Assembly: GCA_018302705.1 (NCBI GenBank)
Contig: JAGVZI010000012.1
Coordinates: forward strand, 332-64,331
From: Candidatus Woesearchaeota archaeon
GTDB lineage: Archaea; Nanobdellota; Nanobdellia; SCGC-AAA011-G17; ARS1403
Length of the DNA stretch: 64,000 bases
Reading direction: 5' to 3'
In this document: in pieces, positions 2,407 to 42,442 of the stretch
Numbering within the stretch: the stretch's first letter is position 1
Layout: each line of letters starts with the position of its first letter
Made by a program: the position numbers and the translations under genes
Notes under the pieces: generated by a model
Seen by the model: only the letters and a program-made list of their open reading frames with translations
Databases searched by the model: none
Told to the model about the DNA's origin: nothing

Positions 2407-3543
2407 ATGAAGAATTTTCAAGCAAGAATAGAAGATAAGTTAAGGGTAATCTCAAATTACTTAGATTACTCTTTGTATAAAACAAGAAGATTATTTTCAA
2501 GAGAGCCTTCTTTAAATAATGTAAGAAATATTTTAGTTGTTGAGTTAAAAAGAATTGGAGACATTTTGGTTGCAACTCCAACATTTAGGGCACTAAAGAG
2601 AAATTTTCCTCAAGCAAATATAGATGTTGTTATCCCGCCAGGAATGGAAGAGGTTTTGTTTTCAAATCCAGATATAAATAAAATTTTAACATGGGATAGG
2701 GAAAAAATAAAAGAAGATTACAATGATTACTTACAACAAATCAAAGACAAATATGATTTAGGAATTATCTTACACAATGGAACCTATGAATTTTCAAAAT
2801 TACTAAAAGGTGCAAAGATTCCTTACAGGATTGGCTGCACTCGGGTTGGTTTTAGAGAGCCCAAAGGGTATTTCTTAACTAAACAATTGTTGCCAGATAA
2901 AAAATTAAAGCATAAAATCGAGGACAATTTAGATGTTCTAAAATTGATTGGTATAAGTTCTATCGAGGATAAAAGTCCGGAAGCATATGTTTCAAAAGAA
3001 GCAGATCTATGGGCAAAGCAGAAATTCAAAGAACACAAAATAAATAGCAAGGATTTTACTGTAGTATTCTCAGTTGTCTCATGGACGCATCCTACCTGGT
3101 TTAAAGAAAGGTTCGCAGAGCTTGCAGATAAATTAATAGAAGACTACAAAGCAAAAATAATTTTTTTAGGGACAGAAAAAGAAAGAGAATTTATTTATTC
3201 TGTAAAAGAGCAAATGAAACAAAGAAAAAATAATTACTGGTTCGGCCAAACTTCAATTCAAGAGTTATTTGCAATAATAAAAAGTTCTGATTTAGTTATT
3301 GGGATAGATTCAGGGCCAACAAATATAGCAGCAGCTCTAAATAAGCCGGTAGTAACTTTATTTGGGGCAGGGGACAAAACTATCTGGGCACCCTATTCAC
3401 AGAATTCAATTTCAATCCAGAAAGATGAAGTTTGCACAGCATGCATGAAGTCAGAATGCAAGTGGAGAGGCGATAGACATTTGGAATGCATGAAAGCAAT
3501 CTCAGTAGATGATGTTTTAAATGCAATTGATAGATTTAGATAA
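2407..3543 (+). CDS. GT9-family glycosyltransferase (ADP-heptose heptosyltransferase-like) with a Cys-rich C-terminus
   Basis: ILVVELKRIGDILVATPTFRALKRNFPQANIDVV N-terminus is typical of GT9; C-terminal GIDSGPTNIAAAL motif; C-terminal CTACMKSECKWRGDRHLEC. Confidence 0.7.
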   Translation: MKNFQARIEDKLRVISNYLDYSLYKTRRLFSREPSLNNVRNILVVELKRIGDILVATPTFRALKRNFPQANIDVVIPPGMEEVLFSNPDINKILTWDREKIKEDYNDYLQQIKDKYDLGIILHNGTYEFSKLLKGAKIPYRIGCTRVGFREPKGYFLTKQLLPDKKLKHKIEDNLDVLKLIGISSIEDKSPEAYVSKEADLWAKQKFKEHKINSKDFTVVFSVVSWTHPTWFKERFAELADKLIEDYKAKIIFLGTEKEREFIYSVKEQMKQRKNNYWFGQTSIQELFAIIKSSDLVIGIDSGPTNIAAALNKPVVTLFGAGDKTIWAPYSQNSISIQKDEVCTACMKSECKWRGDRHLECMKAISVDDVLNAIDRFR

Positions 3544-3946
3544 CGCCCTGCTCCCTCAAAAAGAGATATATCAGGATTATAATAAGTACAATAACAACAA
3601 TCCTTGGATCAATTATGCCTTTTTTGTTTAATTTCATCTTTTCCAAATTTGACATACGAGATTTCAAATCTGAAATATCTCTTATTATATTTATTGTGTC
3701 TTTGAAACTATTTAAATCTTTTTGCAACATCTTTATGTCTCTAGAATTTTCAATAACTTTTTTGTCTCTTTGAGAAGAAACATCTACTCTCCATGATATT
3801 AAAAAGAAGATAATGACTAGCAAGAATATACCTATAAGGATTAATATGCCTATAGTAGACTTTTCCCCAAAAAACGAACCTACAATTACCCCTATAAGAC
3901 TTACAAAAATTCCAATAGAGTTAGTGATAATGTCCTGCCTCTTCAT
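3536..3946 (-). CDS. Small membrane protein with a coiled-coil segment (hypothetical)
   Basis: Two hydrophobic helices flanking a charged, heptad-like segment. Confidence 0.35.
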   Translation of the reverse strand: MKRQDIITNSIGIFVSLIGVIVGSFFGEKSTIGILILIGIFLLVIIFFLISWRVDVSSQRDKKVIENSRDIKMLQKDLNSFKDTINIIRDISDLKSRMSNLEKMKLNKKGIIDPRIVVIVLIIILIYLFLREQGVI

Positions 3947-3998: not shown

Positions 3999-4418
3999 AT
4001 GAGAATAACTCTAATCTCAACTTCCAATAAACAAGATAAAGGACCGAGAATAATTGCCAGTTTTTTAGAAAAAAATAAGCACCAGGTTGAAATCCTTTAC
4101 TCACCTGAAAAGCCTAATTGTAAAGATTCTGGATTGATTGTGGTTTCCGCTAATGTTTCTACTTGTAAAAAGGCTTCAAAGATAATCAAGGCTCTTAAAA
4201 AATTAAATAAGCCAATTGTTTACGCTGGAATTTATCCTTCTTTATATCCAGCTGAAGCTATAAAAGAAACAGATTTAGTTATTTTAAAAAATCCAAAAGA
4301 AACTATTTTGGAATTAGCAAATAAACTGGAGAACTTTCAGAAGATTAGTGACATTCCAAATTTATGGTTTAAAACTAGCAAAAAAAGGATTAGTCAAGAA
4401 TTAAAACAAATATTTTAA
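3999..4418 (+). CDS. Standalone B12-binding-domain-like protein, possibly a remnant of a B12-radical SAM gene
   Basis: MRITLISTSNKQDKGPRIIASFLEKNKHQVEIL... is collinear with the N-terminal B12-binding modules of the rSAM genes at 6514, 23113, 50522, 57410 and 60789, but has no CxxxCxxC domain. Confidence 0.45.
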   Translation: MRITLISTSNKQDKGPRIIASFLEKNKHQVEILYSPEKPNCKDSGLIVVSANVSTCKKASKIIKALKKLNKPIVYAGIYPSLYPAEAIKETDLVILKNPKETILELANKLENFQKISDIPNLWFKTSKKRISQELKQIF

Positions 4419-6513: not shown

Positions 6514-8011
6514 ATGAAAATCTCACTACTTTCAACTTCGACTTTCCCTGCAGACCAGGGTTTAAGGACTTTATCAGCTTGTTTAAAGAGAGAAGGCCAT
6601 GAAGTAAAGATGGTTTTCTTGACTCTGCCTGAAAAGGATTATTCTCAAATTTACAAAAAGTCAGTTTTAGACCAGGTAGACAAAGTAGTTGAAGGATCAG
6701 GATTAATAGGAATTACAGCAATGTCATCTACATCAACCAGGGCAAAGCAGCTAATAGAATATTACCAAAATAAAAAAATTCCAGTTGTTTGGGGAGGCGC
6801 AGCTCCCACATTCTTTCCTGAAAAATGCTTCCAATCCTGCAACATTGTAGCTGTTGGAGAGGCAGAAGAGGCATTATTGGAATTAGCATCTAAATTGGAA
6901 AAAGGAGAAGATATTGCAAAAGTAAAAAATCTTTACATCAGGATAAATGGAAAAGAATTCAGAAATCCTGTACGAATTAATTCTGGAAAAAGGAAAATTA
7001 ATACAGTTCCAGCCCAGGCACCTAGGAACAATTATTTATTTCCAGACAGAAAGGGGCTGTCCGCAGGCATGCTCTTACTGCACTAATAATATTTTAAGGG
7101 ATTTATACAAGGGAAAGTCGGATTTGCTAAGAACACATTCGGTTGATTACGTTATAGAAGAATTAAAAAGGTTGCATGAAAAATTCCCGCATATTGATGC
7201 ATTTGATTTAAGGGACGAAACTTTCACAATTAGAGATATTGCTTGGATTCGAGAATTTTCAGAAAAATACATCAAGTCAGGAATCGGCGTTAGATTAAAA
7301 TGTCTGGCAGAGCCAGCTTCGATGTCTGGAGAAAAAATCTCAAGAGAGAAAATAAAATTGCTTGTAGATGCAGGATTAACCGATATCATCGTCGGGATTC
7401 AATCAGGCTCTGACAGAGTTAATAAAGAAATATATAACAGGTTCATCACAAAAGACCAGTTGCTAAAGGCAGCCCAGACTTTAAATGAATTCAAAGGAAA
7501 GTTAACAGTCATGTATGATATTATAACCTGCAACCCATATGAAAACCCAGAGGATATTTTAGAAACAATCACATTAGTATTGCAAATCCCCCCGCCGTTT
7601 TATACTTCAGTAAATAATTTAATCTATTTTGAAGGAACTCCGTTATACAGAAGGGCATTAGCAGACGGGATAATCAGGCAGGAGTCAGACACAGCTGAAA
7701 TGTTAAACTACTGGGATAGATGGCAGCACATAAAATTAAAAAAGAAAAATCCTTATTTAAATCTTTTACTAAATTTAATGCGGGGACCCGCAACAAAATC
7801 AAGACTGGGATTAATGCCCCGTAGCTTTGTGAAGTCTCTAATAAAACCAAGAATTGTATCCTTTAATTTAAAGAACGAAGTTCCGACAAAAGCAATTGGA
7901 TCAATGGTTTCATTAATGGATTACTTCAGAGAGAATATCGCAAAACCAATTTACAGGTCAATGCCGATTGAGTTTAAAACCTGGTACGATCAGGTAAGGT
8001 ATAAGGCTTAA
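6514..8011 (+). pseudogene. B12-binding radical SAM protein interrupted by a +1 frameshift (ORFs 6514-7086 and 6947-8011 overlap)
   Basis: The N-terminal ORF is the B12-binding domain; the second ORF carries CPQACSYC (CxxxCxxC). By alignment to the paralog at 57410, the join lies near 6975-6995. Confidence 0.65.
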
Positions 8012-12136: not shown

Positions 12137-12490
12137 CTAATATTTAAATCTTTCTAATTCTTTCTTTAACTCTTTTAAGTTCTCAACAAAGATCACATCT
12201 TTATTATTGCACATTACACAAATCCTGTAATCCTTATGTATTGTTTTTTTATCCTCAACTAAAGCAATCACTTTTACATTTTTAGCATAAGCATAACCTA
12301 ATTCCCATGCAGTTCCAGAACTAATCCCTTTCCAATCTAAGACAGCAACGGGATCCATTCCGTCTTCAAAAATACCCATATCTCTATGAGGCAGATAAGT
12401 CTCTCCAAATTCCTCGCAAATTTTATTAACGTCTTCAAGTTTATCCCTATTTTCTTCCTCTCTTAAATTCCCAGCTACATAAATTTTCAT
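12137..12490 (-). CDS. Nucleoside 2-deoxyribosyltransferase-like protein
   Basis: MKIYVAG...SSGTAWELGYAYAKNVKVIAL resembles the NDT fold signature. Confidence 0.5.
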   Translation of the reverse strand: MKIYVAGNLREEENRDKLEDVNKICEEFGETYLPHRDMGIFEDGMDPVAVLDWKGISSGTAWELGYAYAKNVKVIALVEDKKTIHKDYRICVMCNNKDVIFVENLKELKKELERFKY

Positions 12491-12541: not shown

Positions 12542-12976
12542 ATGGTAAATCCAAAAATCGTAACCTCTGCAATAATAATAAAAAACGATAAAGTTTTGCT
12601 TATTAAAAGGAAAAAATATCCCGAAGAAAATAAATGGGCATTACCTGGAGGTTTAGGTTCTTTTAAAAAATTTTCAGATCCTCAAGAGGCAATTAAAGAT
12701 GAAGTAAGATATGATTTAAATACAGATTTTAAAATAAGATCTTTCTTTAATTATAGCTTTTATACAGGATTAGAAGGACCGATAATAACCCTTCATTTTA
12801 CCGGGACAATTTTAGAAGAACCATCTATAAATAAGGAGGATATATTTGCATACGAATACTTTTCTAAAGAAGAGATGCCAAGTAGGGAAGATATGGCATT
12901 TGATCATCATCTTATTTTAACAAATTTCTTTAAATCAGTAAATTCAAAAATGACTTCTAAGGATAAATGTGATTAA
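12542..12976 (+). CDS. NUDIX-family hydrolase (divergent)
   Basis: ALPGGLGSFKKFSDPQEAIKDEV is a partial Nudix box. Confidence 0.5.
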   Translation: MVNPKIVTSAIIIKNDKVLLIKRKKYPEENKWALPGGLGSFKKFSDPQEAIKDEVRYDLNTDFKIRSFFNYSFYTGLEGPIITLHFTGTILEEPSINKEDIFAYEYFSKEEMPSREDMAFDHHLILTNFFKSVNSKMTSKDKCD

Positions 12977-13991
12977 AATGAAATTCAATAGAGATTGCAA
13001 GTCCTTTCCTGGAGTTTATGCATGCGAGATTATGAAGACTGAAGGCTATGAAGACTGCTCTAATTGCATGTTCTATGAGCCAATTGAAAAAAAGATTTTA
13101 ATCATTCAATTAGGGGCGATGGGTGACGTAGTAAGAAGCTTTTTTTTAGAAAACAGCCAGCATGTTGATGAAATTTTAACCTTTGGCTCGGAGTCTTACA
13201 CAAGATTACAACAGGAGCATTTTGATGTCTTATTTAATCTGGAAATTTCTCCTCCAGCAACCTTATTAGCTAATTTAATTAATGCAAAAGAAAAATTTGG
13301 TTATTTTTTTGACAAAGACGGTCATCCTTCAGCATTCAACAAAGGGGCAGAAACTTATTTGCACACAGCATTTTCGGATTATCTAAATAGGATAACAAAA
13401 AAATCTTATCAAGAACTAATTTTTAAGGCTTTAGATTTAGAATATAAAAAGCAAGATTATTCATTCAAGCCGAAGATAAACAAAGAATATGCTCAAACTT
13501 TCTTGAAAATAAACCATTTAAAAAAAGAAGATAAAATTCTTGGAATTAATATCGGCTCTGCATCAAGATTTCCTTCAAAAACATGGCATTTAGATAAAGT
13601 CAAAGAATTAATATCCAAGATAAAGGAGGATTATAAAATTATTTTGCTAGGAGGACCAAATGAACTTGATAAACAAGAAGAACTTGAGAAATTAGCAATA
13701 ACAAATGATTTTAACAACACCATGGAAGAGTTCTGCTCGGTTTTGAGCATCTGCGATGTTTTAATTACAGGAGACTCATTACATTTGCATTTGGCAATAG
13801 CAATGAAAAAACCGACAATAGCTTTATTTTTCACAACGCCGTCATGGCAGATAGAAAATTATAATTTTCTAAAAAAGATAGACTCTCCATTGTTAGAAAA
13901 TTATTTCATGTCAGATCAATATCACGAAGAATTAACTAAAAGTATTTCAGCAGAAGAGGTATTAAAATGTCTGAAAAGCATGAGCATGTAG
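12969..13991 (+). CDS. GT9-family glycosyltransferase (heptosyltransferase-like) with a Cys-rich N-terminus
   Basis: ILIIQLGAMGDVV... N-domain, GDSLHLHLAIAMKKPTIALF C-domain. Confidence 0.65.
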   Translation: MIKMKFNRDCKSFPGVYACEIMKTEGYEDCSNCMFYEPIEKKILIIQLGAMGDVVRSFFLENSQHVDEILTFGSESYTRLQQEHFDVLFNLEISPPATLLANLINAKEKFGYFFDKDGHPSAFNKGAETYLHTAFSDYLNRITKKSYQELIFKALDLEYKKQDYSFKPKINKEYAQTFLKINHLKKEDKILGINIGSASRFPSKTWHLDKVKELISKIKEDYKIILLGGPNELDKQEELEKLAITNDFNNTMEEFCSVLSICDVLITGDSLHLHLAIAMKKPTIALFFTTPSWQIENYNFLKKIDSPLLENYFMSDQYHEELTKSISAEEVLKCLKSMSM

Positions 13992-14377
13992 TTGTCATAA
14001 CCGGAATTGTAAAGTTCAAAGATAAAATTCTCTTGTTGAAAAGAAATTCTAAAATGGAAATGCATCCAAATAAATGGTCATTCCCAGGAGGAAAAGTTAT
14101 TTCAGGTGAAACTTTATTTCAAGCACTGCAGCGAGAAATCAAAGAAGAAACAAATCTGGAAATAGAAGATACTAAAAGATATATTTCAGACTATACATTT
14201 ACTCGTCCTTCTGGAAAAAATACAATTGGTTTCTGTTTTCTTGTAAATGCAAAAAATAACAAAGTGAAATTAAGCAAAGAGTTTACAGATTTTTCTTGGA
14301 TATCTCCAGAAGAGATTGAGAATTATAATATTATTCCCTATCTAAAGGATGAAGTAAAAAAGGCATTTAGCACTTGA
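13967..14377 (+). CDS. NUDIX hydrolase (candidate ADP-sugar pyrophosphatase)
   Basis: Clear Nudix box PGGKVISGETLFQALQREIKEETNLEIE. Confidence 0.75.
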   Translation: MSEKHEHVVVITGIVKFKDKILLLKRNSKMEMHPNKWSFPGGKVISGETLFQALQREIKEETNLEIEDTKRYISDYTFTRPSGKNTIGFCFLVNAKNNKVKLSKEFTDFSWISPEEIENYNIIPYLKDEVKKAFST

Positions 14378-14392
14378 AAGCATAAATCTTTT

Positions 14393-15724
14393 TTGGATCT
14401 GTCAGAGTTTTCAAAAAAGAGAATACTTATTGTTGGAGATATTATGTTAGACAAACACATCTTTGGTACAATTTCAAGACTGTCTCCCGAAGCGCCAGTT
14501 CCAATTTTAAAAGCAGAAAAAGAATCGTATAATCCTGGAGGCGCTGCAAATCTAGCAAATAATATTTCTTCGCTAGGCGCAAAAGCATATCTCTCCGGAG
14601 TTGTTGGGAATGATGAGGCGCAAAAAATTTTATTTAAGGATCTTGAAAATAATAACATAGATACTTCATGTATAATAAAAACTTCAAAGCAAACGATACA
14701 AAAAATCAGAGGATTATCAAGGCAACATTTATTATATCATCAACATTTATTCAGAGTAGACTATGAAGACACCTCTCCAATTTCAAAAGATGATGAAGAA
14801 AAGCTTCTTTCATTAATAAGCTCAAAAATCAATAACGTAGATGCAATTATATTATGCGATTATGCAAAAGGGACTTTAACTGAAAACTTAGTAAAATCTT
14901 TAATCAGGTTAGCAAAAGAAAATAACAAATTAATTACAGCTGATTGCAAACCGATAAATGTTGAGTTCTATAAAAACATAGATTTACTGAAGCCGAATAA
15001 AAAAGAAGCAATTGAAATGACTTTAACAGAAAATATAATGGAAGCGGGAAAGAGATTGATGGAGAAACTAAATGCCAACATAGTTATAACGAAAGGAGCA
15101 GAAGGTTTTTCTATATTTGAAAAAAATGGTAACTGTTCTGATCTGCCCACTGATGTCAAAGAGGTTTATGATGTTTCAGGAGCTGGAGATACAGTAATGG
15201 CATTATTAACATTAGCACTCTCCTCTAATTATGAACTTAAAGATGCAGTTAAATTAGCAGACAGGGCTGCAAGCATCGTTATTAGCAAGCCTGGAGTTGT
15301 TTCAATTACCTTCGATGAATTACAAAGATCATTTACAAACAACATAAAAATTATCCCAAAAGAATGGGGAGAAGAGCAGTGGATTGTTAACAATGAAAAA
15401 TACTGCGGAAAGAAAATGCTCATCAAGCAGAATTATTACTGCTCATATCACATGCACAAAATAAAGGAAGAAACTTTCTATATATTAGATGGAGAATTAG
15501 AATTGATACATAATGGAAAATACTTAAAAGTTGGAAAAGGAGAAACTTTGCATATAAAACCTGGCGAGTATCATAGCTTTAGAGCATTGAAGGACACAAA
15601 TTTCTTCGAATTTTCAACACAGCATTTGGATGAAGATAACTACAGATTAACTAAGTCTTCTTTTGGAGATCATGAAAAATGGAAAAGAGAAATTGAAGAG
15701 GCAATAAAAAATGGGCAAGATTAA
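14393..15724 (+). CDS. hldA: Heptose-7-phosphate kinase (pfkB/RfaE domain I) fused to a C-terminal cupin
   Basis: ILIVGDIMLDKHIFGTISRLSPEAPVPIL plus GAGDT ribokinase-family motifs; C-terminal YCSYHMHKIKEETFYILDGELELI...GEYHSF cupin. Confidence 0.7.
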   Translation: MDLSEFSKKRILIVGDIMLDKHIFGTISRLSPEAPVPILKAEKESYNPGGAANLANNISSLGAKAYLSGVVGNDEAQKILFKDLENNNIDTSCIIKTSKQTIQKIRGLSRQHLLYHQHLFRVDYEDTSPISKDDEEKLLSLISSKINNVDAIILCDYAKGTLTENLVKSLIRLAKENNKLITADCKPINVEFYKNIDLLKPNKKEAIEMTLTENIMEAGKRLMEKLNANIVITKGAEGFSIFEKNGNCSDLPTDVKEVYDVSGAGDTVMALLTLALSSNYELKDAVKLADRAASIVISKPGVVSITFDELQRSFTNNIKIIPKEWGEEQWIVNNEKYCGKKMLIKQNYYCSYHMHKIKEETFYILDGELELIHNGKYLKVGKGETLHIKPGEYHSFRALKDTNFFEFSTQHLDEDNYRLTKSSFGDHEKWKREIEEAIKNGQD

Positions 15725-16760
15725 AACTCGTGATGAAATAAGAAAAATAGTAGAAGATCTGAAAAGAAAAAATAAAAAAACAGGATTTACTTCAGGCTCT
15801 TTTGATCTTCTTCACGTTGGTCATGTTGATTATTTAGAAAAAGCCAAACAAAAATGCGATGTTTTGATTGTCGGAGTTAATTCAGATTCCTCAATAAAAC
15901 AATATAAAGATCCAAATAGACCAATTATCTCTCAGCAACAAAGGATAAAATTAATCGCAGCACTATATATGGTTGATTATGCTTTCTTATTTGAAGAAAA
16001 GAACAATAATAAGAATATAGAAATTTTAAAACCAGATTTTTACATTAAAGCGGGGGACTATTCGCTATCTCAATTATCTTCAAAACCAATTGCAGAGAAA
16101 TATGGGGGGGAAGTGATTTTAATCCCTATAGAAGAAAAGATATCTACGACAGACATCATTGATAATATCAGAATGTTATCTTCAACAGATTCTATCGAGG
16201 ATCAGAAATTTGAAGGGGGTATAAAGGCGATATTTTTAGATAGAGACGGATCAATAAATGAGGAAGTAGAATATTTACATGATCCAGAACAATTTAAATT
16301 GACATCAAATGCTTTAGAAGGTATGAAAAAAATGCAGGATTTAGGATATAAATTAATGATAGTAACAAACCAGCCAGGTATTGGACTCGGATATTTTACA
16401 ATGGAAGATTTTTTCAAGGTCAATTTGCATATGTTCAAACAACTTTCACCGCATAGGATCCAAATAGATAAAATCTATTTTTGTCCACATACTATAACAG
16501 CGAATTGTGAATGTAGAAAACCAAAAATAGGTTTGATAAAAAGAGCACAGGAATATTACCAAGGAAAAATTGATTTGGAGCATTCTTTCTTCATAGGAGA
16601 TTCAACTACTGATGTAAAATGTGGACAAAATGCTGGTATAAAGACAATTCTTGTTAAAACAGGCAAAACAAAACAAGATAAAAAAGAAGATGTAAAACCA
16701 GATTTCACAGCTTTAAATTTATTAGAAGCAGCCAATATTATAGAAGAAAATTCAAACTAA
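15711..16760 (+). CDS. hldC: Heptose-1-phosphate adenylyltransferase (RfaE domain II) fused to a GmhB-type HAD phosphatase
   Basis: GFTSGSFDLLHVGHVDYLEKAK (HxGH nucleotidyltransferase); C-terminal AIFLDRDGSINEE...YFCPH...CECRKPKIGLI (histidinol-phosphatase-like HAD, GmhB-type). Confidence 0.7.
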   Translation: MGKIKTRDEIRKIVEDLKRKNKKTGFTSGSFDLLHVGHVDYLEKAKQKCDVLIVGVNSDSSIKQYKDPNRPIISQQQRIKLIAALYMVDYAFLFEEKNNNKNIEILKPDFYIKAGDYSLSQLSSKPIAEKYGGEVILIPIEEKISTTDIIDNIRMLSSTDSIEDQKFEGGIKAIFLDRDGSINEEVEYLHDPEQFKLTSNALEGMKKMQDLGYKLMIVTNQPGIGLGYFTMEDFFKVNLHMFKQLSPHRIQIDKIYFCPHTITANCECRKPKIGLIKRAQEYYQGKIDLEHSFFIGDSTTDVKCGQNAGIKTILVKTGKTKQDKKEDVKPDFTALNLLEAANIIEENSN

Positions 16761-17651
16761 AAATCCTGAATTATAGTAATCTTTAATCCCTTTCTCAATA
16801 TCAAATTCTGGAGCAAAACCAATTCTTTTCTTAGCTAAACTCATATCACATTCGGTATAATCTTGGTATTTCCCTATATAAGGGTTATCAATGTATTCCG
16901 GTTTCCTATTTGTTCCAAGAACCTTATTCAAAATCCTAATTAATTCGTTAAATGTTGTAGCCTTTCCATATCCACAATTAACAACACAACTTTCTTTCGC
17001 CTGAGAGGCCAGTAGATTTGCTTTAACAACGTCTCTGACATAGATATAATCCCTCTTTTGCTCACCATCTCTGAATATTTTTGGATTTTCTTTTAACATC
17101 TGATAAGCTAATTGATAGATCATTGTAGCTCTTTTTCCTTTAATATTTTCACCTGGGCCGTAAACATTACAATATCTTAAACCTACAAACACAACATCAG
17201 GATGTTTCTTGCCAAGTTCTTTTACAACATTTTCTAAAGCAATTTTGGATTCTGCATATGGATTCAATGGATTCAACAAAGTTTCATTTTCTTTATAGGG
17301 AGCAGAAGAATTCCCATATATTGCAGTTGAACTAGCGTATACTATTCGTTTACACCCATTTTTGATAACATATTCAAACAATTTCTTTGAAGAATCGACA
17401 TTAGCCCTAAACATTTCTGTTCTATCTATATTGGTGGTGTCATTTATTGCAGCTTGATGGAATAAAGCGTCTATTTTTCCTATAGAATCAAAATCCAAGC
17501 CTACAAAGCTTGGCTGTAGATATTTTTTAACACCTTTAATCTTCCTTTCAGAATCATTCCCAGTAATCAGAACATCATGTCCTTCTTTAATCAGTTCAAG
17601 AGCAATATTACTTCCGATAAATCCAGTGCCTCCAGTGACTAAAATTCTCAT
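16752..17651 (-). CDS. hldD: ADP-glycero-manno-heptose 6-epimerase-like SDR (the real start is probably the internal Met at 17651, not 17777)
   Basis: MRILVTGGTGFIGSNIALEL Rossmann motif, YxxxK SDR, about 300 aa, adjacent to the heptose genes. Confidence 0.7.
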   Translation of the reverse strand: MRILVTGGTGFIGSNIALELIKEGHDVLITGNDSERKIKGVKKYLQPSFVGLDFDSIGKIDALFHQAAINDTTNIDRTEMFRANVDSSKKLFEYVIKNGCKRIVYASSTAIYGNSSAPYKENETLLNPLNPYAESKIALENVVKELGKKHPDVVFVGLRYCNVYGPGENIKGKRATMIYQLAYQMLKENPKIFRDGEQKRDYIYVRDVVKANLLASQAKESCVVNCGYGKATTFNELIRILNKVLGTNRKPEYIDNPYIGKYQDYTECDMSLAKKRIGFAPEFDIEKGIKDYYNSGFLV

Positions 17652-18351: not shown

Positions 18352-19293
18352 ATGGTAATATTAAGGAAAGTTAAAAGTAAGAATAAAGAATATTGGGTGC
18401 TAGTTCATTCTATAAGAGAAGGAAAGAAAATTATCCAAAGAACCAGATATATAGGAAAGAACCTTCCCCCGCCAAAAAGATTGGAGTATCTAAAAAAAGA
18501 GTTTCTTAAAGAAATAAAGGGAAACAGATACAAATACTTTTCATCTGAAGATATTGAAAGAATAGAGGGAAAAAAAGAAGAGTATAATAAAGAGATAAAT
18601 AAATTAAGCAAATTAGAAAAGAAGAAAAAATTAGAGGAGTTTATTGTTAGATATACATATGATAGTAGTAAATTATCAGGGCTTGATATTACTTTAAGAC
18701 AAACCTATCTGATTTTAGAGAAGGGGATTATCCCAAAAGGGTTTAAAAATCTAGTAATTATAAGGGAACTTGAAAATCATGAAAAGTGTATTATAGCCAT
18801 AACCAAATATAAGGGAAAGCTCGACCTCAGGTTTATCAAAAAAATGCACAATATTCTCTTTGTGGGTGTTGACGATAGTATTGCTGGAAAATTAAGATAC
18901 GAGATTAAGAGGGATGTTAAGATTGCCGGAACAGTTTATACTCCTCCTAAATGGCAGACTCTTAGAAAAGAGATGGATTATTTTTTCAAATGGTATGCAT
19001 CGGAAAACAGGAGATTACATCCATTAGAATTAGCAGCGTTAATCCATTTGAAGATAGCTTCCATACAGCCTTTTGTAGATGGAAATTCAAGATTGGCAAG
19101 ACTTTTAATGAACTGGATTTCAAGATTGGCAAGACTTTTAATGAACTGGATTCTATGGAAAAGGGAATATCCCCTAGTAGATATTCCGATAGAAGACTTA
19201 GAAAAATATTACGATGTGTTGGATCATTATCAAATAGAAAAAAATGAAAAGCCATTTATTAATTACATTAAAATAAAATATTTAGAAAAATAA
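18352..19293 (+). CDS. Fic/Doc-family protein with a degenerate motif (Gln in place of the catalytic His) and an 11-aa in-frame tandem duplication
   Basis: QPFVDGNSRLARLLMNWI-SRLARLLMNWI compared with the Fic consensus HPFx[DE]GNGRxxR. Confidence 0.6.
   Translation: MVILRKVKSKNKEYWVLVHSIREGKKIIQRTRYIGKNLPPPKRLEYLKKEFLKEIKGNRYKYFSSEDIERIEGKKEEYNKEINKLSKLEKKKKLEEFIVRYTYDSSKLSGLDITLRQTYLILEKGIIPKGFKNLVIIRELENHEKCIIAITKYKGKLDLRFIKKMHNILFVGVDDSIAGKLRYEIKRDVKIAGTVYTPPKWQTLRKEMDYFFKWYASENRRLHPLELAALIHLKIASIQPFVDGNSRLARLLMNWISRLARLLMNWILWKREYPLVDIPIEDLEKYYDVLDHYQIEKNEKPFINYIKIKYLEK
19088..19153 (+). repeat. Perfect 33-bp tandem duplication (two copies, 1 mismatch) inside the Fic ORF
   Basis: caagattggcaagacttttaatgaactggattt occurs twice in a row. 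Confidence 0.9.
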
Positions 19294-19380: not shown

Positions 19381-20661
19381 ATGATTAAAATAGGGATAAT
19401 TGGCGGGAGCGGTTTAGATAATCCAGAGCTTTTACAAGACTTTAAAGAAATTGAAGTCGATACAAAATATGGAAAGCCAAGCGATAAGTTAACAGTAGGT
19501 AAATTGGGAAATGCAGAAGTTGTCATCCTGCCAAGACATGGAAAGGGACACAAAATAACGCCGACAGGAGTTAATTACCGAGCCAATATACAAGCATTAA
19601 AAGATCAAAACGTAGATTATATTCTAGCAACAACAGCTTGTGGAAGCTTAAGAGAGGAAATTGGAAGAGGAGATTTTGTTATTCTTGATCAATTTATAGA
19701 TTTTACAAAACACAGAAAAATAAGTTTTCATGAGGATTTCAAAGATGGAATAAAGCACACTTCAATGGCAGCTCCTTTCGATGAAAAATTAAGAAAGATT
19801 TTAATTGAAATTTCTAAACAGCTAGGATTCAAAACACATGAAAAAGGGACAGTCATAACAATTGAAGGTCCAAGATTTTCAACAAGGGCAGAATCTCACA
19901 TGTTTAGGTCTTGGGGTGCAGATGTAATAAATATGTCAATAGCACCAGAATGTATCTTGGCGAATGAACTAAGTATTCCGTATGCAGCAATTGCAATGGT
20001 GACTGACTATGATTCATTTCTAGATGATCTCCCGCCTGTTACTTGGGAAGAAGTATTAAAAGTGTTCAATGAGAATGCTGAAAATGTAAAGAGATTATTA
20101 ATTGAAGCAATAAAAATATTAGGAGAAGAAAAATTTGATTTAAAACAGCACATCAGGACAGTCCCGCATTGGCCAAAACAAGGGGTAATGTTTAGGGATG
20201 TTACAACATTGTTGCAAGAGCCTAAGGCATTCAGTCACGTTATAGAAACTTTTTCTGAAAGATATAAAAATAAGAAAATAGACAAAGTTGTTGGCATAGA
20301 ATCTCGTGGTTTTATCTTCGGGTCGGCACTTGCGCATAAACTCAACCTCCCATTTATTCCAGTAAGAAAACCAAATAAACTTCCAGCTGAAACAGTATCT
20401 GAGGAATATGAATTAGAATATGGAAAAGACAAAGTTGAAATTCACAAAGATGCAATTAACGAAGGGGATAAAGTTTTGATTATAGACGACTTAATTGCAA
20501 CAGGAGGGACGGTGTTAGCAACTTGTAACTTGATCAAAAAGCTGCACGGAGAAGTTATTGAGTGTGGATTTATTATTGATTTGCCTGACCTAGGTGGAAA
20601 AAAGAAATTGCAAGAAGCTGGCTATAAGGTCTTTAATTTAGTAGAATTTGAAGGCGAATAA
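19381..20661 (+). CDS. Fusion of 5'-methylthioadenosine/purine nucleoside phosphorylase (N-terminal) and adenine phosphoribosyltransferase (C-terminal)
   Basis: MIKIGIIGGSGL...HMFRSWGADVINMS (PNP/MTAP family) then VVGIESRGFIFG...VLIIDDLIATGGT (PRTase type I). Confidence 0.8.
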   Translation: MIKIGIIGGSGLDNPELLQDFKEIEVDTKYGKPSDKLTVGKLGNAEVVILPRHGKGHKITPTGVNYRANIQALKDQNVDYILATTACGSLREEIGRGDFVILDQFIDFTKHRKISFHEDFKDGIKHTSMAAPFDEKLRKILIEISKQLGFKTHEKGTVITIEGPRFSTRAESHMFRSWGADVINMSIAPECILANELSIPYAAIAMVTDYDSFLDDLPPVTWEEVLKVFNENAENVKRLLIEAIKILGEEKFDLKQHIRTVPHWPKQGVMFRDVTTLLQEPKAFSHVIETFSERYKNKKIDKVVGIESRGFIFGSALAHKLNLPFIPVRKPNKLPAETVSEEYELEYGKDKVEIHKDAINEGDKVLIIDDLIATGGTVLATCNLIKKLHGEVIECGFIIDLPDLGGKKKLQEAGYKVFNLVEFEGE

Positions 20662-20698: not shown

Positions 20699-20793
20699 AG
20701 TCCCGTGGTGTAGCGGTCAAATTGATAAAAAATCAAGACTATGCATAGAGGCCTTTGGAGCCTTTGACGGAGGTTCGAATCCTCCCGGGACTA
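20699..20793 (+). tRNA. tRNA-Gln (anticodon UUG inferred), 95 nt, with an apparent ~22-nt intron at the D-loop/D-stem junction
   Basis: Acceptor AGTCCCG/CGGGACT, T-arm GGAGG-TTCGAAT-CCTCC, anticodon arm GAGGC-CTTTGGA-GCCTT, D-arm GTGT...GCAT split by ATTGATAAAAAATCAAGACTAT. Confidence 0.55.
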
Positions 20794-22339: not shown

Positions 22340-23116
22340 ATATTCAATCCCCTTTTCAAAAGGTGTAGGGTTAAATCCGAAATCTTTTTTTATCTCATTA
22401 ATGTTGCAAGTTTTATCCTGCAGCAAATTTTTATCAATAAATCTAACAGCGAAATTTGGAATATTTATTCTGATCGCTTTCTTTGATAAGGCTCTGCATA
22501 TTTTGTCGACGATTTCATTAAAGCTCAAAATCTCACCGCCAACGAAGTAAGTTTTATTCTTTTCTTTGGATTTTATTATATTAGCTATTAAATCTACGAG
22601 GTCCCCAACGAATAATGGCTGTAGCTTCATATCTCCGTTTCCAGGAATAACCGCAATGGAATATTTCTTAATCATCTTTATAAGCATTTCAAGGTCTTTA
22701 TTGTTTCCCCGGCCATAGATAACCGTTGGTCTTAATATAGTATAATTTAATCCTGAATCTCGGACATAGTTTTCAGCAGATTTTTTGGATCTCCCATATC
22801 TTGTTTCTAAGATGGCATCATACGAGCTGATAAAAATGAATTTTTTAACATTGTTTACTACGCAGGCCTCAATCAGGTTTTTGGTTCCAAGAGAGTTTAC
22901 TTCCATGACATTGCCTTTAGTAATTCCTGCAAGGTGGACAACGACGTCAACTTTGCTTGCTTCCAGCAATAGGTCTTTATCAAATAAGTCTCCAAGGTAA
23001 ACATTTTTTCTATCAAATTTTTTCCTGCTCAATATTCTCACATCATAACCTTTATCGAGTACATTAAGGAGATTCCTACCAACAAATCCGGTAGCGCCAG
23101 TAATTAAGATTTTCAT
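22322..23116 (-). CDS. NAD-dependent epimerase/dehydratase (short SDR)
   Basis: MKILITGATGFVGRNLL Rossmann GxxGxxG. Confidence 0.75.
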   Translation of the reverse strand: MKILITGATGFVGRNLLNVLDKGYDVRILSRKKFDRKNVYLGDLFDKDLLLEASKVDVVVHLAGITKGNVMEVNSLGTKNLIEACVVNNVKKFIFISSYDAILETRYGRSKKSAENYVRDSGLNYTILRPTVIYGRGNNKDLEMLIKMIKKYSIAVIPGNGDMKLQPLFVGDLVDLIANIIKSKEKNKTYFVGGEILSFNEIVDKICRALSKKAIRINIPNFAVRFIDKNLLQDKTCNINEIKKDFGFNPTPFEKGIEYLRHDS

Positions 23117-24420
23117 GTGAAAAAAGTTTTTGTGAAATATTTATAAAAATATCTGGGTCTTAAATAATAGCCAACAAGGGCTTTCTGCTGGTATCTCATT
23201 ATTTTTTCCTCGCTTAAGTTGGGGTGATCAAATATTACATGGAAATTGTCATATAGGTCATAATTCTCTGTTTTTATCCTGTCTTTTATCGCATCATAAA
23301 ATTCAGTTCCTGGAATGGGGGTGCCTATTGTGAAGTTGGCAAAATCAGTATTTAACTTTTTAGAATATTTTAAAGTAGCCTTGATAGTTTCTTCAGTGTC
23401 ATTCTCCAAACCGATTACATAGAATCCGACAACCTTCATTCCAATCTTGTCGCAATGCCTAATCATTTTTTCCTGATGCTCTAAAGCTATAGGAAGCCTT
23501 TTACTTTTCCTTAAAACTTCAAGGTCAGCAGATTCAATCCCAACCTTTATAACGCGAAATCCAGCTTTATACATCAAGTCCAATAAATTTTCATCAACCC
23601 TGTCAAGTCTTGTCTCGCAACCTAGCTCGATATCTATTTTTTCTTTAATTATTTGATTGCATAACTCTTCAGTCCTTTTCCTTATCAGAGTAAACATTGG
23701 GTCTCTAAACTGGGCGCCTTTAACATTAAATTTCTCTTTAAGATACTTCAGCTCCCCCATCACATTCTCCACGCTTCTCATCCTGTATTTGCTTCCTAAG
23801 TTAGATTCAGAAATATAAGGACAGTAATTGCATCCGTAAGTGCATCCCCTGCTAGACAAAATAAAAGTAAATGGTTTCTTTGTAATTATTGGCTCGTAAG
23901 AGAATTTCTCAATTGGAAAAAGATCCCAGTCAGGATAAGGTAGGCCATCTAGGTTAGAAACAGGAGAGCTAATTAATCCTTTAGGAATATCCCTTTTATC
24001 TATTATCCTTCCAAGTACGGTTTCGACATCACCCTTTATAATAAATTCCGCTTCCCCAAAAAGTTCAGGTTTCATTGCAGGAAAAGGTCCAACCATTCCA
24101 ACCTTGATTCCTTTCTCTTTCAGATTTTTTAAAGCTATTAATTCATTGCTATGATTTGGCATGCTACCGTGCATTACAACCAGGTCAGCATCATCAACAG
24201 AATTAGAAATAGAAACATCATGCCCGTTTTCTTTCATTATAGTCGCACCATATGCATATGGTATATATGGAAAATATTCTCTATTAGTTCTCAAACCAGT
24301 CAATAATCTTGCAAAAAACCCCCTACCAGCATTGAAGCTTGTTCCATATCCTCCATTGTAGTCTCTATAAATCTTTTTGTCAGATTTAACATCCAAAAAT
24401 ACAACTTTCATACATAGCAA
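23113..24420 (-). CDS. B12-binding radical SAM protein
   Basis: N-terminal B12-binding module; SSRGCTYGCNYCPY (CxxxCxxC). Confidence 0.8.
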   Translation of the reverse strand: MLCMKVVFLDVKSDKKIYRDYNGGYGTSFNAGRGFFARLLTGLRTNREYFPYIPYAYGATIMKENGHDVSISNSVDDADLVVMHGSMPNHSNELIALKNLKEKGIKVGMVGPFPAMKPELFGEAEFIIKGDVETVLGRIIDKRDIPKGLISSPVSNLDGLPYPDWDLFPIEKFSYEPIITKKPFTFILSSRGCTYGCNYCPYISESNLGSKYRMRSVENVMGELKYLKEKFNVKGAQFRDPMFTLIRKRTEELCNQIIKEKIDIELGCETRLDRVDENLLDLMYKAGFRVIKVGIESADLEVLRKSKRLPIALEHQEKMIRHCDKIGMKVVGFYVIGLENDTEETIKATLKYSKKLNTDFANFTIGTPIPGTEFYDAIKDRIKTENYDLYDNFHVIFDHPNLSEEKIMRYQQKALVGYYLRPRYFYKYFTKTFFT

Positions 24421-32630: not shown

Positions 32631-32696
32631 CCAAGTCTTTAAACTCCCAATGAATAATACTCCCAAATTAATGGGACACATGGAGGTGTGTATTTA

Positions 32697-34955
32697 ATGA
32701 GAACTAAAAGAGTGTTGAGAAAAATAGCCGCTCTTTCTACCGGTGCAGCAATGCTTTCTGGGTCAATAACAGGGGCACTAGCACTGAGTTATACCTTAGC
32801 TGATTACCCAGCGCCATTTATTACAAATGGGGTGTTTTCTGGTGTTATAGCTGTAGGTCAAAATGCGGCAGCATCTGATACAATAGGTCAGGCTGTTTTA
32901 TTAGCTGATCTGCAAACAAAGGCTGTTTCTCCAGCAGGTGGAACAACAGTTACAGTAGCTGGAGGCATTTCTGAGGATATTCCACTTGGAGCGAATATTT
33001 CAGACTCGAATTCATATACAATGGATATTGAGTTAGCAGATGATGATATAGACAACTTGTTAGATGGAACAATCTCTTTTCAAGGCGCAGAATACGATGT
33101 AGAAGAGTTTATAGAAATAAATCAAGCAGGTAATGCTGTTTCAGCTGAAACTTCATTGACAAGTGCTGAAGATGATTATCAGACAGATGTTGTCTTGGAA
33201 GTAGCTAGAGATTCCATAAAATATTATTATGCATTCTCTGAGTCTATCCAAGTAAACATAACAACAAGCTCTGACCCATTAAACATAAAATTCTTGGGCA
33301 AGACTTTAAAGATTACAGACATTGACGACAACACTGAAGGCAAGTTTACAGCTTATGTGGGCTCAGAATACTTTCTGGATTCAGGAGACTCAGTAGTTGC
33401 AAGTGGAAAAACTGTAAAGTTAGTTAGAGTAGGCTCTGCAGGAGCCATAGTAGTAGATGTAGACGGAGTAACTGAGACACTTTCATCTAGTACGACTAAA
33501 ACAATAAATGGTATTGAGATTGTAAATGATGAAACATTCTACGACAGTAATAATCAGGCTGCATCATCCGCCAGTTTAATTATTGGTAAGGATGCCCAAG
33601 AAACCTACAAAGATGGGGATGCATTTGCTGGAGAGGACAAAGATAATCCAGATTGGGTATGGAATGTATCAAACATAAAAGAATCCACACTATCTACAAC
33701 AGCATCCACAACAGCAGAATTTACAGGTCCATTTTTTGGTATAGAAAATGATTTCATCTACAATGATGATTCAGACAACCCTCCAAAAGTAGGAGAATGT
33801 ATAGACCTGCCCAATAACTATGTAAGTATTTGCTTAGATAGCTTTACAGTATCAGACGACAATTATGCAACTTATACCTTAGAGTATGAAAGCTCAGCAG
33901 ATCTAAGTCAGGCAGTAGGAACATTATCAGCTGCTAAAAGCGTTCAGATTAGTACACCACAGTCTGAAGGCATAGTTATTAAGGGAAGTAATTTAGGTAG
34001 ATTTAATGGCACAGCAAAAGACATTAAAACAAACAAGGTTTGGTTGTATGCAACATCTGGTACAGGAAACTCTGTAAATCTTGGAGCAAATGGCTCAGAT
34101 ATTGGGGTCTTTTATAGGGATGTAGATGACAGTAAAGTCAAATTGGCTGGACAGATCATCAATGAAACATTAGGAGCAGGTTTAGCCAGGCCTTTGGAGA
34201 TAAACTATGACAATACAAAGGACACAGATATGCAGATATTCGTAGACCATACTTCGACAGATGTAGGCGAGCGAGTAAATGTAACGTTTGTACCCTATCA
34301 TAGTACAGATCTACCAGACTACAACGATAACATAACCGTAGATTGGGCATTAAGTAGTGGAACCTTTAATTCATTAGGAACAACTGCCTCATCAGAGGAA
34401 GCCATAGAATTGCTATGGACAGGAGCAGGAGCAGCAGCTGCACCAACTACAATAGGTACAAAAGATGAAGACCACAGAACAAGATATGGTATCATCATAA
34501 GAGATCCAAAAGCACACGGTAGTAGTGATGAAGTTGTATTGGACATTCCAGGAGATCAAGTGCAGGCAAATGTAGTCCTCAAAGGTACATCGACTAAAAC
34601 AACATCAACTGGTGGCTCTGTAGTAGTAAATCCAATTCCAAGTAGTGCAGCCGCTTTTTCAGAAGAAATTACAAGCGCAAGTGCCCAAAACTTGATCGTA
34701 GTAGGTGGTCCAGCAGTAAATCCATTGGCAAATAGCGTGTTTGGCTTGACAAGAAGCGACTTTACACCAAATGAAGCCATGGTTAAATTAGCTGACAATG
34801 GTGCAAATGTAGCATTGTTAGTGGCGGGTTATGAAGCTGTAGATACAAGAAATGCAGCTTTAGCAGTAGCCGCTGGCAAATTAGCTGGGTTGAGCAAGGC
34901 AGAAGCTAAAGTAGTTTCAACAACGCAAACAGTTGGAAGCTACACAGTAGAATAA
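32697..34955 (+). CDS. S-layer protein, Methanococcales type (S_layer_N/S_layer_C-like)
   Basis: Signal peptide MRTKRVLRKIAALSTGAAMLSGSITGALA; C-terminal NLIVVGGPAVNPLANSVFG...ALLVAGYEAVDTRNAALAVAAGKLAG block; Thr/Ser-rich with several N-x-S/T sequons. The listed start 32688 is GTG; ATG 32697 has a better SD. Confidence 0.75.
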   Translation: MRTKRVLRKIAALSTGAAMLSGSITGALALSYTLADYPAPFITNGVFSGVIAVGQNAAASDTIGQAVLLADLQTKAVSPAGGTTVTVAGGISEDIPLGANISDSNSYTMDIELADDDIDNLLDGTISFQGAEYDVEEFIEINQAGNAVSAETSLTSAEDDYQTDVVLEVARDSIKYYYAFSESIQVNITTSSDPLNIKFLGKTLKITDIDDNTEGKFTAYVGSEYFLDSGDSVVASGKTVKLVRVGSAGAIVVDVDGVTETLSSSTTKTINGIEIVNDETFYDSNNQAASSASLIIGKDAQETYKDGDAFAGEDKDNPDWVWNVSNIKESTLSTTASTTAEFTGPFFGIENDFIYNDDSDNPPKVGECIDLPNNYVSICLDSFTVSDDNYATYTLEYESSADLSQAVGTLSAAKSVQISTPQSEGIVIKGSNLGRFNGTAKDIKTNKVWLYATSGTGNSVNLGANGSDIGVFYRDVDDSKVKLAGQIINETLGAGLARPLEINYDNTKDTDMQIFVDHTSTDVGERVNVTFVPYHSTDLPDYNDNITVDWALSSGTFNSLGTTASSEEAIELLWTGAGAAAAPTTIGTKDEDHRTRYGIIIRDPKAHGSSDEVVLDIPGDQVQANVVLKGTSTKTTSTGGSVVVNPIPSSAAAFSEEITSASAQNLIVVGGPAVNPLANSVFGLTRSDFTPNEAMVKLADNGANVALLVAGYEAVDTRNAALAVAAGKLAGLSKAEAKVVSTTQTVGSYTVE

Positions 34956-39126: not shown

Positions 39127-39816
39127 TTGAGTTTTATCTACATGGCAATAACCCAAACAATACAGGAATTTGCATTGCAGAGCTCACAAGGAAGTATAGT
39201 TAATCTAATCGTAGGGCTTATATTAACATTAATTTTCACATTTATAACAAGCAGGTTATATGTAAAGTATGGAAGTGCCCTATCCAACCGAGAGAGGTTT
39301 GCAAGAAACTTTGTTATCTTGGGCATGGTTACAACATTAGTCATCTCTGTTGTGAAATCATCATTAGCTCTCTCTCTCGGTCTTGTCGGAGCTCTCTCAA
39401 TTGTAAGATTTCGTGCAGCAATTAAAGATCCGGAAGAAATAGTATATTTATTTTTAGTAATTGGAATAGGATTGGGATTAGGGGCTAATCAATGGATAAT
39501 AACAACAACCGCATTTGTGATAATCGTGGCTGCAATAACTGGGAGATCTTATCTAAAAAGAAACCCAGATATGAGGGGCCTATCTTTGCTAATAACAATA
39601 CCGGCTCCAAGAGAGAATTCATTTTCAAAGATAAGGCAAGTTCTCGCAAGAAACTGTAAATCTGTTAATCTGAAAAGATACGATGAAAATCAAATAGGCC
39701 TAGAAGCGCTTTTTATAATAGATTTTAATAATATTAGAAGCCTTGAGAACATTAAAGATGAACTGAAGTCCTCATTCAGTCAAGTCCAGATTTCATTTCT
39801 TGATAATATTATATAA
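39127..39816 (+). CDS. DUF4956-family membrane protein
   Basis: LIVGLILTLIFTFITSRLY...LGLVGALSIVRFRAAIKDPEEIVYLFLVIGIGLGLG. Confidence 0.6.
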   Translation: MSFIYMAITQTIQEFALQSSQGSIVNLIVGLILTLIFTFITSRLYVKYGSALSNRERFARNFVILGMVTTLVISVVKSSLALSLGLVGALSIVRFRAAIKDPEEIVYLFLVIGIGLGLGANQWIITTTAFVIIVAAITGRSYLKRNPDMRGLSLLITIPAPRENSFSKIRQVLARNCKSVNLKRYDENQIGLEALFIIDFNNIRSLENIKDELKSSFSQVQISFLDNII

Positions 39817-39821
39817 TAATC

Positions 39822-42428: not shown

Positions 42429-42442
42429 GGTAATCATTTAAA

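Follow-up and report, generated by a model that had tools for sequence, protein, structure and literature searches.

A kinase-fused cupin domain as a probable sedoheptulose-7-phosphate isomerase in the ADP-heptose module of a Woesearchaeota archaeon

In this study, we analysed a 64,000-nucleotide stretch of DNA from a Candidatus Woesearchaeota archaeon (contig JAGVZI010000012.1, positions 332 to 64,331; hereafter the window) and in particular an ADP-heptose gene module at its positions 12,542 to 17,651, in which a heptose kinase is joined to a cupin domain. Six open reading frames (ORFs) are found there (Table 1). Their Pfam and NCBIfam matches agree with the order given in a preliminary description of the sequence, namely NUDIX, glycosyltransferase family 9 (GT9), NUDIX, kinase+cupin, adenylyltransferase+GmhB and, on the opposite strand, HldD. 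The five plus-strand genes are tightly packed (gaps of -8, -25, +15 and -14 nt) and HldD is convergent with them. The window does not show the HldE arrangement; the kinase is joined to the cupin and the adenylyltransferase is joined to GmhB. An identical kinase-cupin protein is encoded on 11 independent groundwater contigs, and therefore the fusion is real and no assembly artefact.

For all four heptose-pathway domains the corresponding heptose model is the clear best match, with scores just under the NCBI equivalog cutoffs, as would be expected of archaeal sequences that have diverged. The kinase domain, at 329 bits, falls 16 bits short of the rfaE_dom_I cutoff (345) and scores four times its ribokinase match (79 bits). 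The adenylyltransferase reaches 164.9 bits with rfaE_dom_II as its top match (cutoff 181.5) compared to 42 bits with glycerol-3-phosphate cytidylyltransferase. Both proteins thus belong with the heptose enzymes, as had been assumed in the preliminary description, and not with ribokinases or glycerol-3-phosphate cytidylyltransferases. The phosphatase domain, with HAD motif I (DxD) in the form DRDGS at aa 177, is below the GmhB cutoff (178) and exceeds the cutoffs of TIGR01656 and TIGR01662. HldD (cutoff 274.6) scores 127.6 bits with GalE, and its length of 299 aa is also found in gene calls on sibling contigs. The ISTT motif of the adenylyltransferase (aa 144-147, context EVILIPIEEKISTT) has no arginine nearby; by the rule given in two commentaries (PMC11461863 and PMC11573728), this weakly suggests that the enzyme is ATP-specific. 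Except for the isomerase step, the module is an ordinary ADP-heptose pathway.

Table 1. Coordinates of the heptose module, of other window features and of GSU2086-family genes on related contigs. Steps refer to the proposed pathway.
Feature	Contig	Position	Strand	Match or remark
NUDIX-fold protein, small (144 aa)	window	12542-12976	+	weak Pfam NUDIX match, 29.6 bits
GT9 (heptosyltransferase family)	window	12969-13991	+	Pfam Glyco_transf_9 59.6 bits; best NCBIfam heptosyltransferase I
NUDIX hydrolase (136 aa), MutT/NudI-like	window	13967-14377	+	Pfam NUDIX 71.4 bits
Kinase+cupin fusion (443 aa)	window	14393-15724	+	PfkB aa 10-303; Cupin_2 aa 350-402
PfkB heptose-kinase domain of the 443-aa protein	window	14393-15331	+	TIGR02198 329 bits at aa 3-313; PfkB 135.8 bits
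Cupin domain (aa 315-443) of the 443-aa protein	window	15335-15724	+	proposed metal-dependent sedoheptulose-7-phosphate isomerase, step 1
Adenylyltransferase+GmhB fusion (349 aa)	window	15711-16760	+	rfaE_dom_II + GmhB NF006506
Adenylyltransferase domain (aa 1-154), HldC / HldE domain II type, step 4	window	15711-16172	+	TIGR02199 164.9 bits, aa 13-154
GmhB-type HAD-IIIA phosphatase domain (aa 172-349), step 3	window	16224-16760	+	NF006506 169.8 bits, aa 172-343
HldD-type ADP-glyceromanno-heptose 6-epimerase (299 aa, ATG at 17651), step 5	window	16752-17651	-	TIGR02197 244.9 bits, best match
Second GT9	window	2407-3543	+	Pfam Glyco_transf_9 102.6 bits
Third GT9, split	window	55029-56377	+	ORFs 55029-56024 (N-terminal part) and 56021-56377 (C-terminal part)
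S-layer-like protein	window	32688-34955
GSU2086-family gene	L097	9100-9996
GSU2086-family gene	L015	11385-12176
GSU2086-family gene	L017	11393-12331
GSU2086-family gene	L022	2840-3811
GSU2086-family gene	L027	10843-11817

The preliminary description reported no SIS-type GmhA in the window, and this was borne out. Pfam scans of essentially all window ORFs of at least 100 aa detected no SIS domain, and phmmer searches of every ORF between two stops down to a length of 50 aa, with E. coli and archaeal probes, found no GmhA; the searches covered the 64-kb window, and a GmhA may lie elsewhere in the genome. The cupin domain was analysed in detail. By alignment, its putative metal ligands are H353, H355, E360 and H394, accompanied by the catalytic-type residues K340, K358, E406 and D413/D415, so the metal ligands that the preliminary description had wanted to see are present. 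Further invariant residues are K323, W325, E328, N333, Y337, C338, T409, H411 and R418. Invariant columns number 20 in an alignment of 75 family members, and 19 positions are invariant across 160 members from genomes and phages, whatever their genomic context; motif 1 (H-x-H-x3-4-E) and the histidine of motif 2, i.e., the four ligands, are kept in 160/160. At E <= 1e-10 the family comprises 868 clusters at 50% identity in a library of 1.84 billion representatives, ranging over DPANN archaea, Patescibacteria, Bdellovibrionota, Planctomycetota, Dependentiae and hundreds of marine phage contigs. The AlphaFold model of the domain is confident (predicted local distance difference test, pLDDT, of 95) and has the double-stranded beta-helix fold. 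Matches in the BFVD viral fold library were to generic cupins only.

Over almost its whole length, the family profile can be aligned with two D-lyxose isomerases (E-values 6.5e-9 and 2.2e-8). The active site of the Thermofilum D-lyxose isomerase consists of K62, H75, H77, K86, E88, H143, E156 and D163; Mn is held by the three histidines and E88, and activity is lost when the equivalents of K86, E156 and D163 are mutated (PMC8378251). In the alignment all eight residues correspond, with one consistent offset, to K340, H353, H355, K358, E360, H394, E406 and D413. By this alignment the cupin therefore has the complete set of catalytic residues that a metal-dependent ketol-isomerase uses. The domain scores 21.9 bits with Pfam Lyx_isomer (threshold 20.8), yet no single stretch passes, and 20.1 bits with MannoseP_isomer (threshold 23.6). 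It is best treated as a sister family. K323, H411 and R418 are candidates that may bind phosphate. The best PDB sequence matches of the cupin are to the quercetinase YxaG, but a dioxygenase reading was rejected since the match is limited to the generic central metal motif.

Fusions link the cupin to heptose enzymes. The kinase-cupin architecture is present in 73 of the 120 best kinase homologues; cupin-kinase proteins occur as well and, rarely, kinase-adenylyltransferase-cupin and cupin-kinase-adenylyltransferase proteins. To these the best 150 cupin representatives add GmhB-cupin-adenylyltransferase, adenylyltransferase-cupin, a small HAD protein before or after the cupin, cupin-HddC, cupin-RmlD-like and GT9-cupin-kinase. 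With at least ten architectures, fusion must have occurred repeatedly and independently. All partners that could be identified are enzymes that make or use NDP-heptose, and SIS was never a fusion partner in either set. The kinase-cupin fusion, considered unusual in the preliminary description, is therefore widespread, and it is already in the databases under generic names ("cupin domain-containing protein", "PfkB family carbohydrate kinase", "heptose-7-phosphate kinase"). The adenylyltransferase-GmhB fusion, likewise thought to be unusual, is common in bacteria and archaea: both domains are present in 120/120 best matches (52-61% identity), from KSB1, Calditrichota, Bacteroidota, Bdellovibrionota and DPANN. 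This similarity between bacteria and archaea suggests ancient exchange. In a KSB1 genome a SIS gene is followed by the adenylyltransferase-GmhB fusion.

Genomic neighbourhoods point in the same direction. The cupin profile has relatives in 426 species genomes, of which 80 loci were fetched. The cupin is fused to the kinase in 26 and adjacent to it in 10 of them; these 36/80 loci span Woesearchaeota, Nanoarchaeota, Iainarchaeota, Methanosarcinales-labelled metagenome-assembled genomes, Patescibacteria, Bdellovibrionota and others. We estimate the chance of a single-copy kinase within 10 kb of the cupin at about 1%. A SIS gene is nearby in just one of the 36 kinase-linked loci.

In one case GmhA and the cupin occupy the same place. 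Four Woesearchaeota contigs (L097, L098, L100 and L101), whose shared genes are 53-69% identical, have the order STT3/AglB, glycosyltransferase family 2 (GT2), DUF2304, GT9 and, further on, NTP_transferase (minus strand), X, Y, PfkB kinase, GmhB and adenylyltransferase. Slot X holds a free-standing cupin in L098, L100 and L101, and in L097 a 187-aa SIS protein with TIGR00441 GmhA as its best match (183.7 bits). In slot Y the cupin operons have HldD, whereas L097 has a GSU2086-family protein. An exchange of the whole cassette, cupin plus HldD for SIS plus GSU2086, was considered and rejected, since GSU2086 homologues also close cupin clusters without HldD (L015, L017, L022 and L027). The alternation of HldD and GSU2086 assorts independently, and thus the swap between cupin and GmhA holds in its own right. 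As a separate observation, DPANN heptose clusters without HldD end with the GSU2086-family protein (NF052581, 420 bits; remote deoxyhypusine-synthase-like fold), and it could be an alternative enzyme acting on nucleotide-heptose.

Marine phages carry the same enzyme set. At least 582 cupin family members were found on viral contigs, and 80 loci were fetched. The kinase is present in 50 of these, the adenylyltransferase in 55 and an HldD-like short-chain dehydrogenase/reductase in 39, while SIS and canonical GmhB were found in 0/80. A sample independent of the cupin was obtained by fetching 80 loci via the kinase, which has at least 591 viral relatives. Here the cupin is present in 77/80 and SIS in 0/80, and in the three loci without cupin the contig ends about 0.6-1.8 kb past the kinase. 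The typical cassette encodes an adenylyltransferase (rfaE_dom_II best), a kinase (rfaE_dom_I best), a protein of about 115 aa, the cupin and an HldD-like epimerase (heptose_epim best); in Prochlorococcus phage P-SSM2 it corresponds to PSSM2_309-313. A small HAD phosphatase occurs in 57-60 loci of each 80-locus viral set. Its P-SSM2 representative PSSM2_311 (114 aa) is annotated as "phosphoheptose isomerase". It carries the HAD motifs DIDGT, FTAR, GKP and IDDK, matches HAD-fold capsule-biosynthesis phosphatases (PDB 9iqw, E 1e-10; 1xpj; TIGR01689) and has no similarity to SIS, and a role as real isomerase was therefore rejected. PSSM2_311 and the neighbouring cupin PSSM2_312 (3221-3565 and 3546-3902 in L264, AY939844.2) are both mislabelled, the latter as "putative nucleotidyltransferase" in GenBank and "cysteine dioxygenase" in RefSeq, and the same mislabelling is found in S-SM2, S-CAM1, S-CAM3, S-T4 and others. 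That the viral heptose pathways have been published as phosphatase-less may stem from this phosphatase being mislabelled as isomerase. In the phage cassette the isomerase is the sole unfilled step and the cupin the sole unplaced enzyme, which makes the cupin the isomerase candidate. Among complete genomes, 14 named cyanophages have the cupin, and just one of these, a phage with two cassettes, yields a SIS gene when queried with GmhA.

Taken together, the conserved residues, the relatives, the fusions, the neighbourhoods, the swap, the near-exclusivity with SIS and the pairing with two unrelated kinase families (see below) strongly support the proposal of the preliminary description that the cupin replaces GmhA. 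On this comparative evidence the cupin is quite probably a non-homologous sedoheptulose-7-phosphate isomerase; we infer its substrate, its reaction and its metal, as well as the glycan acceptor. Lyxo/manno ketol-isomerases interconvert ketoses with lyxo/manno-configured aldoses, and the conversion of sedoheptulose-7-phosphate to D-glycero-D-manno-heptose-7-phosphate is the same transformation with more carbons. In the proposed pathway the cupin domain (aa 315-443) would bind a divalent metal via H353, H355, E360 and H394 and catalyse this isomerisation via a cis-enediol intermediate, a route suggested by its relatives (D-lyxose/D-mannose isomerases and cupin phosphomannose isomerases), which use it on sugars of the same C2-C4 stereochemistry. 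The PfkB domain of the same 443-aa protein would then phosphorylate C1, the GmhB domain of the 349-aa protein would remove the 7-phosphate, the N-terminal domain of that protein would adenylylate the heptose-1-phosphate, and HldD would epimerise C6''. Three genes would thus suffice for all five steps, as the preliminary description had proposed. For the family as a whole, we consider it likely that the cupins are a second, non-homologous class of sedoheptulose-7-phosphate isomerases, that surveys based on GmhA miss or mis-score many archaea, bacteria and viruses, and that the "phosphatase-less" viral pathway is complete.

Several observations weigh against this interpretation. The nearest characterised relatives use unphosphorylated sugars or mannose-6-phosphate, a fructose-6-phosphate/mannose-6-phosphate substrate is chemically possible, and the phosphate-binding site is a guess. 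The in-place swap with SIS is seen in one genome only (L097). The phage samples consist of the best 80 matches each and are phylogenetically related. Both the cupin and a divergent GmhA-like SIS protein lie near heptose genes in L074 (Saccharibacteria) and in phage SynMITS9220M01. In both, there are two cassettes, and each cassette has an isomerase candidate of its own: PfkB+cupin and HddA+SIS-GmhB in L074, HddA+cupin and a second kinase with SIS, transferase and HldD in the phage. Finally, 44/80 genomic and 25-30/80 viral cupin loci have no heptose gene within 8-10 kb. The lone genomic cupins mostly represent one conserved Dependentiae synteny plus Planctomycetota, and at least one lone-cupin genome (GCA_028714095.1) encodes HldD and the adenylyltransferase-GmhB fusion on another contig.

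In Dependentiae/TM6-type loci (L048-L050, L057, L062-L065, L068-L071, L079, L083, L085-L086 and L091) a free-standing cupin and the genes for phosphatidylserine decarboxylase, ribulose-phosphate 3-epimerase, LpxK, GlmU and a MraY/WecA-like transferase make up one conserved block, which is an envelope/pentose-phosphate context and not a heptose cassette. Lone phage cupins (25 viral loci, a subset of L105-L184, e.g., L115, L129 and L138) have no kinase or adenylyltransferase within 8 kb and ordinary phage genes around them.

Among the alternatives, the one that fares best takes the cupin for a phosphomannose isomerase (PMI) or a broad sugar-phosphate isomerase serving GDP-mannose or general glycans, with the true GmhA elsewhere in the genome or, for phages, in the host. 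We consider this unlikely. An NTP_transferase gene indeed adjoins the Woesearchaeota operons, but it is there with SIS or cupin in the slot alike. Many family members lie away from heptose genes, however, nothing mannose-related was found around lone cupins in the genomic and viral loci fetched. The MannoseP_isomer and GMP_PMI models match weakly, a solved small cupin PMI is among the top structural neighbours, and chemistry and stereochemistry would be the same; against this, the identifiable fusion partners all belong to the heptose pathway and none to the mannose pathway. SIS is missing from complete cyanophage genomes that carry the cassette, barring the one two-cassette phage, and with a PMI every cupin cassette would be left without isomerase.

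A second alternative, which we regard as distinctly improbable, is that the cupin acts on a later intermediate, e.g., as a metal-assisted epimerase on ADP/GDP-(keto)heptose, comparable to the CapF cupin or RmlC/Cj1430-type enzymes, giving another heptose isomer. In phage SynMITS9220M01, in L145 and in phage Bellamy, the cupin is located between an HddA-type GHMP kinase (best match NF049969, 287 bits) and an HddC-like transferase. These cassettes continue with GDP-mannose-4,6-dehydratase-like and RmlD-like enzymes, which fits a GDP-alpha-heptose/6-deoxyheptose route. PfkB and GHMP heptose kinases are unrelated, and produce different anomers for different nucleotides; their common substrate is heptose-7-phosphate. 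Since the two kinase families share this substrate, which is the product of the isomerase, the occurrence of the cupin with both points to step 1 and not to a later step. That the cupin has no catalytic role and serves as a sugar-binding or regulatory module tuning the kinase, as ligand binding by cupins elsewhere and a weak AraC_binding match could suggest, is very improbable, because archaea, bacteria and phages keep the four metal ligands and the four catalytic-type residues without exception and the cupin is often a free-standing gene or fused to enzymes other than the kinase.

As a sedoheptulose-7-phosphate isomerase, the cupin would share its reaction and pathway position with GmhA (SIS fold, EC 5.3.1.28, TIGR00441), which occupies the same slot in the syntenic Woesearchaeota operon. 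The two are unrelated in sequence and fold, GmhA being a SIS alpha/beta protein and the cupin a beta-barrel of about 110 aa with His/His/Glu/His ligands. D-lyxose/D-mannose ketol-isomerases (Lyx_isomer PF07385; PDB 7nzo, 2y0o and 3kmh) are 170-230 aa long, act on unphosphorylated pentoses and hexoses and have no link to heptose genes; compared to D-lyxose isomerases, the cupin family adds an invariant N-terminal K-x-W-G-x-E-x-W strand and the invariant H411 and R418. Small cupin PMIs (Thermococcus, PDB 7zvy/7zvm) and the type II PMI domain of ManC (PF01050) are similar in size and fold, have the same metal motif and turn a 2-ketose phosphate into a manno-aldose phosphate, as proposed for the cupin. 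However, identity to cupin PMIs is about 21%, scores are under the family thresholds and the context here is heptose, not mannose. The cupin phosphoglucose isomerase (PGI) of Euryarchaeota (PF06560) belongs to a different cupin family with another substrate, is about 190 aa long and is glycolytic. In the cyanophage lipopolysaccharide (LPS)/heptose cassette of P-SSM2, the same enzyme set including the cupin is encoded by separate genes with a small 114-aa HAD phosphatase, whereas the genes of the window are fused.

An ADP-heptose pathway in an archaeon was expected to be unusual, but it is widespread in DPANN and has been published: according to two commentaries (PMC11461863 and PMC11573728), Tang et al. 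(Science, 2024) reported functional NDP-heptose enzymes of archaea, viruses and eukaryotes. HldE and the mono-, di- and tri-domain heptose nucleotidyltransferases of that work have the same kinase and adenylyltransferase domains as the window. The rare cupin-kinase-adenylyltransferase and kinase-adenylyltransferase-cupin proteins mirror the published isomerase/kinase/transferase tridomain type, whose isomerase domain is reportedly GmhA-like. A full-text literature search returned nothing on a cupin sedoheptulose-7-phosphate isomerase, or on a cupin together with ADP-heptose or GmhA.

The window is clearly archaeal, with markers such as ribosomal S3Ae, S13/S15-N, a GAN-type DHH-CID nuclease and Bud32, and its nearest relatives are labelled Woesearchaeota or Nanoarchaeota. 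Horizontal acquisition of the module had been suspected. GC content is uniformly low (0.28-0.38) without a step at the heptose module, giving no compositional sign of recent transfer, and the module is conserved across Woesearchaeota and Nanoarchaeota. Of the two NUDIX genes, the first is present solely in the near-identical sibling contigs L008-L011. The second is a conserved member of the Woesearchaeota module and adjoins the kinase-cupin gene in six other genomes, the order GT9-NUDIX-kinase/cupin being kept in L015, L017, L019, L020, L025 and L027; its top NCBIfam matches are generic Nudix, MutT and NudI, not ADP-sugar hydrolases.

The GT9 enzyme of the module is the probable consumer of ADP-heptose. 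Compared to otherwise identical sibling contigs such as L008, it has a 26-aa in-frame deletion (TSILSAIKEKYGRNIKITWLTSQECK) right after the GDVVRS motif, and this copy may be impaired. The further GT9 genes expected from the preliminary description were found, which gives three in the window. The second is a possible further consumer. The third is split; Pfam GT9 profile positions 8-155 (21.8 bits) and 163-238 (73.7 bits) are covered by its two parts, both of which match the second GT9. The two ORFs overlap by 4 nt and represent either a frameshift or a genuine two-piece enzyme. In related archaea the heptose module adjoins AglB/STT3 and a GT9, which suggests that heptose enters N-glycans there. 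STT3 was not detected in the 64-kb window. An S-layer-like protein is encoded nearby, as had been stated, and its heptosylation is plausible.

The remainder of the window forms an island rich in glycosylation genes; it encodes many GT2/Anp1-like transferases and two PMT_2 (GT-C) proteins, along with several B12-radical-SAM enzymes and methyltransferases. Radical SAM genes are unusually dense (3999-4418, 6514-8011, 23113-24420, 50522-51964, 56374-57450, 57410-58906 and 60789-62207). Several bind B12 and one has a SPASM domain, and they are interleaved with glycosyltransferases and methyltransferases, which suggests extensive glycan or lipid modification. One B12-binding radical SAM protein is encoded by two overlapping ORFs here (6514-7086 and 6947-8011) and by one 517-aa ORF on the sibling contig L008 (1911-3464); the window copy spans about 56 nt less, which points to a disrupting indel. 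A reading frame shorter than in the sibling is also seen for the nucleoside 2-deoxyribosyltransferase-like gene at 12137-12490 (117 aa vs. 134 aa), and a Fic-domain protein (18352-19293) has an 11-aa tandem duplication (SRLARLLMNWI twice) just past the Fic motif region, resulting in 313 aa vs. 302 aa in the siblings. At 19381-20661 a single 426-aa ORF joins PNP_UDP_1 (methylthioadenosine/purine nucleoside phosphorylase-like) to a phosphoribosyltransferase domain, a fusion that also neighbours a lone heptose-type kinase in L099. A 95-nt tRNA at 20699-20793 (Rfam match of 54.7 bits) was missed by ARAGORN and probably is an intron-containing archaeal tRNA. DUF4956 and VTC-domain proteins flank an 868-aa protein without Pfam match at 39127-43147 and may form a polyphosphate-related trio with it.

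LPS cores, capsules and glycoproteins contain ADP-heptose and related compounds as building blocks, and in vertebrates these compounds act as potent agonists of the ALPK1-TIFA pathway of innate immunity. Heptose producers are currently inferred from homologues of GmhA, HldE/HldA-HldC and GmhB. The proposed function of the cupin reaches past the window to bacteria and abundant marine phages. If it is correct, it would supply the first step that many heptose cassettes of archaea, bacteria and phages lack, and correct long-standing mis-annotations in model cyanophages, e.g., P-SSM2 and S-SM2. The census of heptose producers would change, including the claim that viruses lack the phosphatase. Sedoheptulose-7-phosphate could be converted to ADP-L,D-heptose by a compact route of three proteins, of use in enzymatic synthesis. 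After the cupin PGI, the family would be another textbook case of a cupin that convergently replaces a SIS-type sugar-phosphate isomerase.

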